From Candidatus Poribacteria bacterium (GTDB taxonomy: Bacteria; Poribacteria; WGA-4E; PCPOR2b), in contig OZ242326.1 in the NCBI GenBank assembly GCA_965208325.1, positions 224,001 to 288,000 on the forward strand: a stretch of DNA of 64,000 nucleotides, read 5' to 3'. The position numbers and the translations under genes were made by a program. A model generated the notes under the pieces. That model made no database searches, was not told where the DNA came from, and was given only the letters and a program-made list of their open reading frames with translations. Below, piece after piece: positions 54,116-58,495 of the stretch. Numbering within the stretch: position 1 is the first letter of the stretch; the number at the start of each line of letters is the position of its first letter.

Positions 54116-54502
54116 TCACCATTCTCGATCGACCCCGTAAGCGTTATATCCCGTGTCTACGCTAATTATTGGAAATCCTTCAACCAGTCCTTGAGCGATT
54201 ATCATGCGGTCAAATGGATCTCGGTGATGATATGGTAAATTGGTTAGCTTGATGAGGCTATCAACCGTAATATCCAATATCTCAATTTGATTCAGATGTA
54301 GTTCATCTGGAAACATCTGGTCAAACGGTCTGTCTAACTCAAGTTTCCCTAAACCCGTTTTAACTGCAATCTCCCATAGACTCGCAACACTGAATACACT
54401 TTCGTGGCTGGAATTCTCGATTAACTGTCGTGCTCTGCGGCTCAGTTTTTTGTCGTCAGCAAGAAACCAAAGCAGCGTATGTGTATCAAGCAGATACTTC
54501 AT
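54116..54502 (-). CDS. vapC: PIN-domain VapC toxin
   Basis: YLLDTHTLLWF, SLWEIAVK, HHRDPFDRMIIAQ, ISVD; acidic tetrad intact. Confidence 0.95.
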   Translation of the reverse strand: MKYLLDTHTLLWFLADDKKLSRRARQLIENSSHESVFSVASLWEIAVKTGLGKLELDRPFDQMFPDELHLNQIEILDITVDSLIKLTNLPYHHRDPFDRMIIAQGLVEGFPIISVDTGYNAYGVDREW

Positions 54503-55317
54503 TCCATATACTCTTTGAAATCCGGGAGTTCATCGTCAAAATCTTCGCGAATGTGAATAAGTCCTTTTGCGCTGCCAGCTACAGCCTTTAACCACGGTTC
54601 CAGAAAGACGGTCTTCCACTTAAATTGGTAGGTTGGCATCGTCGTGTTTATTGACTCAGCATAAAACAGGAAGTGATACTTTACATAAGTCTGGTCCAGC
54701 AATTTCATGCAATCATCCAGTTCCCCAAATGTCGGAACATCTTCCGAATCGTCCATGTCCCAATGTGCAATACGTTTATCAGCGATCGCTTCATGAATTT
54801 CTACGGCGGATTTGAGCCGTTTCAAATCGGCTTCTACCATCGTGGGGCACACATGCTTTCCGCTGGCATCTGTGTATCGCGCAAAGTCATTCATCTTAAT
54901 CAAATCTTTCGGTTTGGAGGTACCGGTAATCCCGACTTCTTCAAATTCGTTCCTTCCCTCTGTTTCTATTTGACTGATGTCAGGTCCATAAGGATAAGCA
55001 CAGAGGGAACGAAAGTAGTCGCGGGATAACTCTTCAGGGTTTTTCAAAATATCACCAAGCAATCCCACAAAGGATATACTGTCCTTTTGAGGTTTAATTT
55101 GTCGGAGCAGCCCAGCTAGTGCATGAGAAAGATAAGTCCGCCCAAGATAGCGGTAGAAGGCACTCGGTTTTTGGATACGCGGATTCGCGCGGATAATGTC
55201 TTGAACTTCCCAGAAAATATTCGCATCCACAACAAGACCCTGAATTTCGTCGCGAATCGCCTGCATCCATGTAAGCCACTTCTTGAGTTTCGGACTCGCC
55301 TTAAATTTCTGATTCAT
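54499..55317 (-). CDS. AbiU2/HEPN-like helical protein fused to a VapB/DUF2281-type antitoxin tail
   Basis: DSISF..LL and ADKRIAHWD HEPN-like motifs; tail GSAKGLIHIREDFDDELPDFKEYME; ATGA overlap with vapC. Confidence 0.7.
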   Translation of the reverse strand: MNQKFKASPKLKKWLTWMQAIRDEIQGLVVDANIFWEVQDIIRANPRIQKPSAFYRYLGRTYLSHALAGLLRQIKPQKDSISFVGLLGDILKNPEELSRDYFRSLCAYPYGPDISQIETEGRNEFEEVGITGTSKPKDLIKMNDFARYTDASGKHVCPTMVEADLKRLKSAVEIHEAIADKRIAHWDMDDSEDVPTFGELDDCMKLLDQTYVKYHFLFYAESINTTMPTYQFKWKTVFLEPWLKAVAGSAKGLIHIREDFDDELPDFKEYME

Positions 55318-55421: not shown

Positions 55422-55682
55422 TTATGAGGGCTGCAACGGCTTGTCAGACTGAAATGCACTGTACGCATACACGGGTGTCTCGATGACGCGAACAGGGCGG
55501 TGCTGTCCCCATGCAGCTTGCTGTAAAAGTTCGACGGTTTCTGGGGAGAAGTATCTTTCTCCTGTTTCGGCATTTACTCGGGCGGGCACATCTTCAACAA
55601 TAACGAACCGCCCATTGACTTCAACACTATACGTTACCCTTTTCTCAACTAAAGTCTCATTCCACACATTATCGTCGACCAT
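55422..55682 (-). CDS. YgiT-type (MqsA-like) antitoxin-family protein lacking zinc cysteines
   Basis: VIVEDVPARVNAETGERYFSPETVE...IETPVY. Confidence 0.8.
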   Translation of the reverse strand: MVDDNVWNETLVEKRVTYSVEVNGRFVIVEDVPARVNAETGERYFSPETVELLQQAAWGQHRPVRVIETPVYAYSAFQSDKPLQPS

Positions 55683-55738
55683 GCTGCCTCTTCTCCGTCT
55701 TGAATTCAATCCATCGTATTATTCGGATTGATTGGATT

Positions 55739-55859
55739 TCAAAGTTGATTGAGCAATCCATCATATTCGGCGTGAGAGCCTATCCAAAACCGATAAATCC
55801 TATCATCTTCCCGCAAGCCCAAAGCACGCAAGAAAATCCTCTGCCAGATATGAGTTCAC
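55739..55859 (-). pseudogene. RelE/ParE-like toxin remnant with internal deletion
   Basis: GTGA overlap with antitoxin stop; MNSYLAEDFLACF joined out of frame to RALGLREDDRIYRFWIGSHAEYDGLLNQL*. Confidence 0.8.
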
Positions 55860-56074
55860 AACTCATCAATTCCCATCTTTTTGATGCGGCCTGCCTTAAT
55901 GTCAGTTCGGACTTTGAGGGCGAGTTTGGCAAGTTTATCATGTGATTCGGAAAAAGCCGCATCCCATCGTCCTTCATCGTCGAGTTCTTCAAGGATCAAC
56001 GCCGCAATGGTGTCCTGTTTTTCAGGTGGAAGTTTATAAACCTCAATGAGTGCTTTTTCAAGAAGTTGTGTCAT
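55856..56074 (-). CDS. Small antitoxin-like protein
   Basis: MTQLLEKAL..V.KLP..KQD.IAALILEELDDE.RWD..F..S..KL; strong RBS; coupled to the toxin remnant. Confidence 0.8.
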   Translation of the reverse strand: MTQLLEKALIEVYKLPPEKQDTIAALILEELDDEGRWDAAFSESHDKLAKLALKVRTDIKAGRIKKMGIDEL

Positions 56075-56119
56075 AATTGCTGTTCCTTCCTCTACTGGAT
56101 GTAGCGCGTTTAGCATTCG

Positions 56120-56384
56120 TTACGGGAAGTATCAAAATATGTCCCGGCGCGTTTGGCACCGTACAAACATTGTGCTGTCTTGGTTTAACGGTAGACCAAG
56201 CCATTATTCGCCAATCCAAAATCGATAGCAACTTCCACTGCCGCTGAGTTTTCGGACATTACTCACTTTTTTGAGGTCGTCTACTTCTTCAATTCGTTGT
56301 ATCGCTGGCCTGACAAAGAATTTCCCGGAATGCCCTGCTGCGTCTCATGACCCGGGTGAAGCTGTTTCAAAACTCAACTTTCAC
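56120..56384 (-). pseudogene. RelE-family toxin pseudogene
   Basis: MKVEF*NSFTR...(frameshift)...VRKLSGSGSCYRFWIGE*WLGL...FVRCQTRRDIF*YFP*; GTGA overlap with the upstream gene. Confidence 0.85.
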
Positions 56385-56590
56385 GATTCGGTTTCTAAAA
56401 TTTTGAAGACCTGTTTTCTAGGGACAATCCCGGTCTCTTCCCCGTCTTTGATTGCATTAGCTAGAGCCACATCTTCAAGAACTTCAATGAATACATCATA
56501 CAATAAATCTCTCCGTTCCTGTAACAGTTCGGCGGTCGCTTGTTTGAACACTTCCTTCAGTTGATTCTTATCATCAATTATCTGTTGCAT
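56381..56590 (-). CDS. Small RelB-like antitoxin
   Basis: Acidic 69 aa; EVLEDVALANAIKDGE...VPRKQVF; coupled to the relE pseudogene. Confidence 0.75.
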   Translation of the reverse strand: MQQIIDDKNQLKEVFKQATAELLQERRDLLYDVFIEVLEDVALANAIKDGEETGIVPRKQVFKILETES

Positions 56591-56623: not shown

Positions 56624-56848
56624 TTAAACATTGCCAAGCGAAAGTATCTTTGCTTGTACAGATTCCAAAATTGAATCTCGAATGAACGCACTAGCATTTA
56701 AAATTTCGATACCGATTAGTTCTCCGGCGTCATTTAATTCTACCGTAATATTGGGATTCAGTTCAATACTTCCCCTTTCGGGTTCATCAGAAATCTCCAA
56801 ATGCAATACGTCTTCTTGCTCAAAATATGCCATCTTTGTATTATTCAA
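56624..56848 (-). CDS. DUF2283 domain protein (antitoxin-like)
   Basis: YFEQEDVLHL.IS...SIEL.PNITVELN..GELIGIEILNAS; start at TTG 56848 or ATG 56833. Confidence 0.85.
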   Translation of the reverse strand: MNNTKMAYFEQEDVLHLEISDEPERGSIELNPNITVELNDAGELIGIEILNASAFIRDSILESVQAKILSLGNV

Positions 56849-56956: not shown

Positions 56957-58495
56957 TTAATCTGAAAAACTATGTTCTGCTTTAGCGGAAGGGTAATCCA
57001 AGCACATAGACTCGTGCTCCGCACCCGCATCTATTTCATGAAGCAATACTTTATGGATTTCTACCATAGCAAGTGTGTCCATCCTGCAATAATTCTTCAA
57101 GTGATAAATCATATTGCCTTTTTCTACTTCCCCCGTGGTGTTAATCATCAAATCCCAGACAGCCTGGGCGTCATCGCCGTCTTGAACATCCAAAGTCTGG
57201 TAGGAAAGAGACGGTACCAAAATAGGAAGTACGTTCTTTAGAGAATTTGAACCACCAAAACCGGGGTGTTTATAGTGATTTTTAAAAATCAACAGCTGGT
57301 CCCATAGTCTGGAAACAACTGACTGAAGTGCTCCAGAGTATTCAGGGAAATATTGAGCCAATTCCTCAAATCTCTCGCGTTCAAAAGAAGCAGAATAGAC
57401 TACCACCGAACCGACATCGGAGATATGATTAAGCATAGATTCCACTAAAGGTAATCTTGGATCAGTTGTATCGGTGTGCAAGTATTCGTGATGTGTAATC
57501 GAACCGTCTGATTGCAAAATGTGGCAACTGTACTGAAATGGAAAGTGATTGTACGGACTTAAACCCTCAAACCTCGGAATCGCAGGGTTGAGCGTTTCAA
57601 AATCAAAGAAATGAATAGGATATTCTAATTCTGATAATTCGTTTCTGATTGCCGCAACATCAATCTCTGGCTGATTATTCAGAACCATATCAACGTAAGC
57701 GCGCTGATTTTGAGTCAATGCAAAATCGGCAGGGAGATCTTCAAGACTAAAGACTCCGCTTTCTATCAACTGGTTTTTTTTATCCCAACTAAGTCGCGGA
57801 ATAGTGAAAATTGAGGGTTCAGGAACGAACTCCCAACAATGGTCCTTAAACGGGCAAGTGTCGGGCTCGTCACACTGCTTTCCTATTGAGACGACCGGTT
57901 CAACGTCACCTTGAAGTATTGATTTGAATGTCTCTACATCGCCGGGGACATTTTCCATCAATGGGTCAACTCGATCGGTTACATCATCAAAAACAAACAA
58001 ATTAGAGAGGTCCGGATAAACACATTCTCGATTTATATGCATCAACTGTGTTCTAGAGATGGACACGCCGATTTCACTCAAGACGTACTTTAGGGCAGCT
58101 AGTTCATGCAAATGCGCTTCTTTGACATTTTTTGACGCGGTGACTTTAATGATTTTCCACGACTTTGAGTCTTTCTGAAGAACATCACACCGTGCCGAAA
58201 TACCATCAAAATTAAAGATAGGTTCAAAGATGTACGGTACGCCGCGTCGCATGGCATCTTGGGTTTGCTCTGAAGACTCCTCATGATCCAAGGAATCAAT
58301 CAACATGCCCCCCGGAAAATTATCTCGAGCAAGAACTCTGACCTCTGTGCTTTGATTGATAATTCGCTGTTGCGATCTGGATACTGTAGATGCTCTCTGT
58401 GGATGGCTCTTTTCACACCAAAGGCGTTCATACCATAGGCGTTTGTGACATTGCAGCCCGCTCATATATTTGGAATTCGTAACGAACATTTCCAT
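56957..58495 (-). CDS. DUF2779 family protein (Cas4/RecB-like N-part plus RNase H-like exonuclease C-part)
   Basis: SKYMSGLQCHKRLW, C....CPF...CW, FFDFET, PFQYSCH, GSNSLKNVLP, YCRMDT. Confidence 0.88.
   Translation of the reverse strand: MEMFVTNSKYMSGLQCHKRLWYERLWCEKSHPQRASTVSRSQQRIINQSTEVRVLARDNFPGGMLIDSLDHEESSEQTQDAMRRGVPYIFEPIFNFDGISARCDVLQKDSKSWKIIKVTASKNVKEAHLHELAALKYVLSEIGVSISRTQLMHINRECVYPDLSNLFVFDDVTDRVDPLMENVPGDVETFKSILQGDVEPVVSIGKQCDEPDTCPFKDHCWEFVPEPSIFTIPRLSWDKKNQLIESGVFSLEDLPADFALTQNQRAYVDMVLNNQPEIDVAAIRNELSELEYPIHFFDFETLNPAIPRFEGLSPYNHFPFQYSCHILQSDGSITHHEYLHTDTTDPRLPLVESMLNHISDVGSVVVYSASFERERFEELAQYFPEYSGALQSVVSRLWDQLLIFKNHYKHPGFGGSNSLKNVLPILVPSLSYQTLDVQDGDDAQAVWDLMINTTGEVEKGNMIYHLKNYCRMDTLAMVEIHKVLLHEIDAGAEHESMCLDYPSAKAEHSFSD

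Follow-up and report, generated by a model that had tools for sequence, protein, structure and literature searches.

The gene at 54,499–55,317 (minus strand) of the window, the 64,000-nucleotide stretch of a Candidatus Poribacteria genome analysed here, encodes a 272-aa protein in which an AbiU2-like HEPN domain continues in frame into a VapB-type antitoxin tail and which is translationally coupled to an intact VapC toxin. The fusion is real and conserved, and as a type II toxin-antitoxin variant it is apparently undescribed. We favour, with somewhat more confidence than doubt, the reading that it is a chimeric antitoxin with two jobs, in which the HEPN part would retain a role of its own and carry the neutralising tail. 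The following features were identified at the locus.

54116..54502, minus strand: vapC, PIN-domain toxin gene, 128 aa, intact (PF01850 match; ATGA overlap with the fusion gene)
54499..55317, minus strand: gene of the 272-aa fusion, an AbiU2-like HEPN domain joined to a VapB-type tail (ORF list; homologues share the start Met)
54499..54585, minus strand: VapB-type tail, predicted to neutralise, residues 245–272, 28 aa plus stop (NF050009 match, likeness to donor antitoxins, model)
54586..55317, minus strand: AbiU2-like HEPN domain, residues 1–244, helical bundle (ends at the W..IF..PW family motif, the stop point of tail-less homologues)
54763..54783, minus strand: ADKRIAH motif, residues 179–185 (His present, canonical Arg absent, as throughout the subfamily)
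54892..55002, minus strand: variable lineage-specific insert, approximately residues 106–142 (low model confidence; contains all internal deletions of 120 homologues)
55102..55107, minus strand: conserved RR site, residues 71–72 (Leu71 in the window copy, Arg usual)
55422..55709, minus strand: YgiT-type zinc-finger ORF (profile match; neighbour)
55742..55858, minus strand: ParE-like toxin gene remnant (intact in genomes G010 and G003)
55856..56116, minus strand: 86-aa ORF preceding the ParE-like remnant (ORF list; no family match), presumably an antitoxin gene
56126..56381, minus strand: ParE/RelE-type toxin pseudogene (intact in genome G018)
56381..56590, minus strand: RelB-like antitoxin gene, orphaned (PF25734 match)
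56624..56833, minus strand: DUF2283 protein gene, orphan (profile match), which we take to encode an antitoxin

The reading frame of the fusion is uninterrupted from the ATG at 55,317 through ...WKTVFLEPWLK into AVAGSAKGLIHIREDFDDELPDFKEYME, and its TGA overlaps the ATG of vapC as ATGA (54,499–54,502). ORF coordinates and translation thus confirmed the in-frame fusion and the overlap described in an earlier note made from the sequence alone. A tblastn search found a single copy each of the fusion and VapC in the source genome. The junction was covered without mismatch by contigs from all of the four runs examined, which represent no more than two samples from a single study and could include the source material itself. 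The same note had counted uniqueness to this assembly as a refutation of its reading; the search of other genomes excluded this, since the fusion recurs in 51 genomes and its junction is supported by contigs. An assembly artefact or an accident of a single genome, for which no point was found in favour, is therefore refuted by recurrence and has a negligible probability.

A protein search with the full-length query, which biases the result toward tailed matches, gave 227 matches among 950 candidates, and the tail was present in all of the best 120. In the search of the phylum Poribacteria, 86 of 176 genomes matched. The fused forms were typed on the fetched loci, a set that excludes weak matches from G082 and G113 as well as 12 matches not listed. 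Type A, the form in the window, comprised 53 loci in 51 of the 176 genomes and in three families, with VapC downstream, and the ATGA overlap was found in 32 of the 34 type A loci with an intact VapC. Type B (18 loci in 18 genomes, for example L138 in G159, L140–L154 and L040:6395-7093) has a shorter domain, the junction PPRQAG and VapC downstream; its His is lost, its C-terminal domain motif is missing and its tail is highly conserved. Types A and B occur together in several genomes. Type C (7 loci in 7 genomes) carries an unrelated tail ending in WWN.EGD.EWDEW and is followed by PemK (PF02452), for example L033:4171-4881 and then L033:3848-4183 in G050.

Beyond these loci, a third tail, helical and 54 aa long, was found in the protein P0202. 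Its metagenomic kin, at nine loci (L180–L188, for example L188:3001-4276), are 71–97% identical, and all eight that could be parsed have an HNH-type ORF 4–10 bases downstream; both of the HNH-type ORFs scanned passed PF01844. We assume that this tail is also an antitoxin. Its Atlas match (0.79), to short cyanobacterial hypothetical proteins, is a lead only, and no donor locus was found for it. The attachment point of the different tails coincides with, or lies close to, one shared C-terminal motif of the domain. Additionally, the entire fusion-vapC module is tandemly duplicated at L039:4814-7687 (G057), with two differing junction variants. At the type A junction (residues 244–248), xGFG and AVAG variants are found repeatedly in different families, a hint that modules may have recombined.

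VapC matched the PIN profile PF01850 above the cut-off (E 5e-14), and the acidic residues D6, E44, D98 and D116, which we take to be catalytic, are all present. Fusion residues 240–271 matched positions 34–65, the C-terminal half, of NF050009 (TA_VapB; E 1.4e-8) at 35 bits, which falls under the whole-protein cut-off of 60 bits, and the DUF2281 match of the tail was weak (E 0.021). The earlier note was right that the tail corresponds to the C-terminal part of the short antitoxins, of Phd/DUF2281 type, that accompany this class of VapC; the same tail occurs in the donor antitoxins described below. With regard to the features of a VapBC pair, an intact and coupled PIN toxin lies directly 3' of the fusion, and a C-terminal toxin-binding tail is indicated by NF050009, the donor in G004 and the modelled interface; profile searches found no small N-terminal DNA-binding domain in the fusion (Phd, RHH, AbrB or HTH).

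Modelling of the full-length fusion with VapC, suggested in the earlier note, placed the tail on VapC with a complex score of 0.68 versus 0.00 for the best of three controls; the mark for this score was attained by 116 of 157 solved pairs and 2 of 215 mismatched pairs, and the score may stem from resemblance to solved VapBC pairs. Contact agreement between runs was 95% or more, and partner pLDDT was 91 or higher. On the fusion side, the confident contacts comprised residues 241–271 and residue 47, residues not named being uncertain rather than excluded. The model supports binding of VapC by the tail rather than by the HEPN domain, and the tail would thereby neutralise the toxin. A PDB sequence search (E ≤ 0.01) gave no match for VapC and only designed repeat proteins for the domain.

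Pfam profile searches gave no HEPN match for the fusion itself. Among the 140 members of its alignment, 98 matched PF18734 (HEPN_AbiU2) at E ≤ 0.001, which bears out the initial AbiU2-like assignment. Tail-less homologues with 47–49% identity passed this profile at 27.7 and 35.8 bits (cut-off 26.8), as did the fused protein P0073, and by transitivity the domain of the fusion would be a member of the family. The domain model is all-helical and matched an AbiU2 cluster in the Atlas (TM 0.73). In the fold comparison, 3jrt (Z 8.0, rmsd 5.9, 141 aligned) and 5yep (Z 7.0, rmsd 3.7, 118 aligned) were retrieved, with unrelated bundles scoring equally high; solved HEPN structures turned up only amid generic bundles, which head the VIA lists. 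Foldseek (E ≤ 0.001) gave no PDB or BFVD match.

The Arg of the Rx4-6H motif was carried by none of the 126 pattern-matching representatives (150 were surveyed, 24 of them without a pattern match) and by none of the 120 further homologues. Its place is taken by A/V/T/I/G/S, and the conserved motif of the subfamily is [DN]xx[IV]AH. Because tail-less members of the subfamily are also without this Arg, its absence is ancestral rather than an adaptation to fusion; the earlier suggestion that it was a feature of the fusion was not supported. The His is retained in types A and C and in the tail-less copies, and lost in type B. In the 90 stand-alone members the His, a Trp and an Arg equivalent to position 71 are invariant. 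All 90 stand-alone representatives and 114 of the 120 fused homologues have this Arg, the window copy having Leu, and we infer that it is a candidate stand-in for the catalytic Arg.

The subfamily is large (2906 representatives at E ≤ 0.001) and mostly tail-less. A recognisable antitoxin tail was found at none of 30 non-Poribacteria loci; it was found in 2 of 150 representatives, one of which is the Poribacteria PemK form, and in none of 120 further homologues, so that fusions are rare outside Poribacteria. Pfam searches detected no DUF4065/Panacea domain in the fusion or the 140 alignment members. PADLOC 2.0 had no model match for the fusion or VapC, and its search of the 90 stand-alone members gave one stray methyltransferase match only. 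The stand-alone copies shared no common neighbour in 103 of 106 flanking ORFs scanned (29 of 30 loci), and R-M, PIN, RES, nucleotidyltransferase, integrase and transposase genes were occasional neighbours. With the queries used, viral contigs, plasmids and phage records yielded no relative, and none of 8000 scored candidates was a longer fusion, which is weak evidence. Three further arrangements were seen: a minimal nucleotidyltransferase gene follows a stand-alone copy at L095:1344-1676, the sole HEPN-MNT-like pair among the scanned loci; a SIR2-like protein of more than 1100 aa is encoded immediately downstream of a tail-less HEPN copy at L031:1-3303 (G042); and P0183 joins the HEPN-like domain to an N-terminal piece weakly resembling CopG_antitoxin (E 0.016).

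Short antitoxins with the same tails indicate where the tails came from. In G004 and G067, a VapC 68–69% identical to that of the window is preceded by a short Phd-type protein with the same tail; 20 of 25 tail residues are identical between the fusion and the G004 antitoxin, and the phd_fam match of the donor is weak. At 13 of 14 other VapC loci, a short upstream protein bears a related tail, and the 14th lies at a contig start. In a per-genome check, 51 of the 55 close VapC matches belonged to genomes where a fusion is immediately followed by VapC; the remaining four comprise two with a Phd donor and two at contig ends. The 30 PemK loci were preceded by a short protein ending in the type C tail (21 loci; 75–106 aa as called), a HEPN fusion (5 loci) or something else (4 loci). 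Because such short donors precede both VapC and PemK, the HEPN gene, judging by the shared tails, took the place of the small head before both. The fusion probably arose by deletion, so the deletion-born chimera proposed beforehand is probably right: the donors were found, and we infer the deletion itself.

A single origin of the tailed HEPN domains was considered. In a quick tree, starred branches split the VapC-type from the PemK-type domain copies, and tail-less copies nest among tailed ones, yet an AU test (47 rows, one clade versus 10 outside rows) did not reject one clade (p 0.106). Since the tails of the VapC and PemK forms are unrelated, the tails were acquired separately, by new fusion or by swap; separate origins of the domain are not claimed.

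Upstream of the fusion, the array consists of decaying toxin-antitoxin cassettes, with a gene order partly common to relatives. Both toxin remnants were named through intact relatives, their own Pfam matches being uninformative. The claim that VapC is the only intact toxin of the island holds for the two neighbouring toxins that could be tested, both ParE-type remnants. Promoter and terminator scans at the locus gave chance-level results only, and no meaningful repeats were found. The array is bordered by a DUF2779 protein (window positions 56,957–58,495) with a weakly Cas4-like N-terminus, which also adjoins the fusion in G001. In six genomes, the YgiT finger, HEPN-like domain and VapB tail form a triple in-frame fusion (L006, L011, L012, L015, L017 and L021; P0025), so in-frame joins are not rare in these arrays.

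Under the codon model, dN/dS in type A was 0.25 for the domain (46 sequences; 0.22–0.29 in ten column resamples), 0.22 for the tail and 0.27 for VapC. The corresponding values in type B were 0.33, 0.07 and 0.26, and those of type C and of seven tail-less copies were 0.31 and 0.28; pairwise dN/dS of the core ranged from 0.10 to 0.26 in 10 pairs. The HEPN part is under purifying selection similar to that on VapC. Additionally, D180, R182, H185 and D187 were retained in 46 of 46 type A copies. The core dN/dS of about 0.25 and the invariant His did not support the proposal in the earlier note that the chimera is kept only because it neutralises VapC. The His is absent from 17 of 17 type B copies, and because their domain is nevertheless constrained, catalysis is not what every form retains. 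Internal gaps of the 120 homologues were confined to residues 109–142, and a large core deletion was seen once, in G168, with a truncated VapC adjoining. The window copy has 39 non-synonymous and 32 synonymous private changes, versus about 5 and 8 in each of two sisters; its own branch is somewhat relaxed.

The state of the toxin was scored at 78 fusion loci, which include non-independent kin and at least one 'broken' case that is a contig break: 48 have an intact toxin, 25 have lost it or carry a broken one, 4 have an altered one, and in 1 it lies at a contig edge. An open fusion frame was present at 46 of the 48 loci with an intact toxin and at 20 of the 25 toxin-less loci. Meanwhile, the HEPN gene is broken beside an intact VapC in G036 (stop codon) and G048 (insertion). 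Unless the tail is rescued by internal starts, these two loci argue against the full-length protein being strictly required. The insertion in G048 (L028 and L202) splits the HEPN gene, leaves vapC intact and carries a transposase that is presumably IS110-like.

In the favoured two-job reading, an in-frame deletion in the cassette array would have swapped the Phd-type DNA-binding head of VapB for the neighbouring AbiU2-like HEPN gene. The 28-aa tail, homologous to antitoxin tails and modelled on VapC, would bind and neutralise the translationally coupled toxin, and the HEPN part would contribute the start signal and serve as its stable, folded carrier. The selection observed on the HEPN part would reflect a stand-alone role that it keeps, most likely single-gene anti-phage defence, and the addictive linkage to the toxin would shield the HEPN gene from loss. 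The two jobs would not need mechanical coupling. Autorepression of the operon was probably lost, because there is no recognisable DNA-binding head. We favour this reading because tailed and tail-less copies of the domain are under equal selection and the domain often persists after the toxin is lost. A stand-alone HEPN_AbiU2 cassette of V. mimicus, whose subfamily may differ, is reported to confer T4 and T7 resistance in the accessible part of 10.64898/2026.03.17.712381, which also counts for it. Counting against it, the accessible part of PMC13064643 describes lactococcal AbiU1 as protecting alone and AbiU2 as lowering protection and not itself the protective gene. In PMC3985639, as far as accessible, lactococcal AbiU2 is among the genes without growth inhibition in E. 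coli. The lack of a conserved neighbour or PADLOC family in support of a defence role of the subfamily, the Leu71 and 39/32 private changes of the window copy, the loss of His in type B at a domain dN/dS of 0.33, and the broken HEPN genes beside VapC in G036 and G048 also weigh against the two-job reading. Moreover, finding three different tails on a single domain family points to more than accident.

These three tails, unrelated, each preceding its own toxin and joined near the same C-terminal motif, speak for a sensor or guard antitoxin, which we consider possible but clearly less probable. A phage product, counter-defence protein or protease would act on the domain, the tail would be pulled away or destroyed, and the toxin would be freed; the domain would then serve as a Panacea-like input module, with VapC, PemK and HNH as swappable outputs. 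The loss of the DNA-binding head makes another control input plausible, and PanA-Phd-C, in the accessible text of PMC10440598, offers a published precedent for the hypothesis. Gating gains further because the domain was repeatedly recruited and the type B core is constrained without His, although that loss, in one paralogous form, also counts against a sensor. Against gating, 25 of the 78 fusion loci have a lost or broken toxin, and most of these retain the domain; fused copies of the domain are not under stronger selection than tail-less ones; fusions are rare beyond Poribacteria (2/150 representatives and 0/120 further homologues); and the YgiT fingers fused to the gene in six genomes show in-frame joins to be common in arrays. 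Tentatively, the Arg-less AbiU2-like domain could be a reusable toxin-antitoxin input module that defends or senses alone and, when tailed, serves as a tripwire, freeing the coupled nuclease when infection engages or destroys the domain; it would have been wired to at least three unrelated toxins, VapC, PemK and HNH.

It is unlikely that the HEPN part is an inert carrier kept merely because, once translated and folded, it stabilises the tail in the manner of a SUMO tag. SUMO-Phd-C neutralises Doc without Panacea (PMC10440598, accessible text), type B has a tightly constrained tail (dN/dS 0.07) without the His or the C-terminal motif, and the window copy is without Arg71; against this stand the four residues retained in all 46 type A copies and the absence of large core deletions, to which a mere carrier could be tolerant, from the 120 best homologues, which are top scorers, with the one case (G168) beside a truncated VapC. 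Even less probable is a short product of 46 aa from an internal start at Met227, nested in the HEPN gene, as the working antitoxin, with the long fusion as read-through. Met227 is retained in 113 of 120 homologues, and the two loci with broken HEPN and intact VapC have internal Met codons with purine-rich leaders; however, no Shine-Dalgarno-like word precedes Met227 in the window copy, this residue is missing from types B and C, and promoter-like sites are no more frequent than by chance.

By architecture, the closest published analogue of the fusion is PanA-Phd-C. According to the accessible text of PMC10440598, PanA-Phd-C/Doc and the multidomain Panacea antitoxins, like the fusion, join a globular N-domain to a short borrowed neutralising C-terminal element, and one globular domain pairs with several toxin families, with a sensor role hypothesised and unproven. 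In the same text, Panacea can be accessory, Phd-C neutralises Doc and SUMO-Phd-C is enough. Unlike Panacea antitoxins, the fusion has an AbiU2-like HEPN instead of DUF4065, a domain that is mostly stand-alone elsewhere, with VapC, PemK and HNH as toxins, and there is no sign that the HEPN domain itself neutralises directly. Phd/DUF2281-type VapB-VapC pairs share with the fusion the tail motif, the VapC class, the antitoxin-first order and the ATGA coupling, whereas their DNA-binding head of about 50 aa is replaced by the 244-aa HEPN-like domain. A VapC/DUF2281 pair, with the toxin upstream, is validated in the accessible part of PMC12654330, and PIN-DUF2281 pairs are tabulated in that of PMC4963859.

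The likeness to HEPN_AbiU2 PF18734 (PMC3710099, accessible part) consists of the profile matches (98/140), the Atlas TM of 0.73 and [DN]xx[IV]AH; the subfamily differs in having A/V/T/I/G/S where the Rx4-6H motif has Arg, and in an invariant Arg located far upstream, at position 71. That part of the paper lists AbiU2 as a HEPN family, with a 'Yes' in a table column that we read as motif conservation, and gives Sel1-repeat and R-M contexts, antitoxin tails not being among them. HEPN-MNT systems (HepT/MntA), including fused forms, also have a HEPN within a toxin-antitoxin locus (PMC13000451, accessible part), but there the HEPN is the toxin, silenced by a nucleotidyltransferase, whereas here it is on the antitoxin side and has no conserved MNT partner. 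No description of HEPN-antitoxin-tail fusions was found in the literature searched, with subscription papers largely outside its reach.

The recurrence across toxins is of more interest than the window locus alone, and it brings to notice a large unstudied HEPN subfamily with a non-canonical motif. For most families of type II antitoxins, the way in which phage is perceived is an open question, and that accessory domains such as Panacea act as sensors is so far a hypothesis. The tail-less, three-tail and His+/His- forms, beside the short donors, make a ready control set for testing the gating of toxin release. If the HEPN part were an inert carrier, the fusions would still be a clear case of deletion-born antitoxins fixed across a phylum. 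If it were an input module, it would be a second Panacea-like hub, made from a defence effector fold, and the domain may link virus detection to toxin release.
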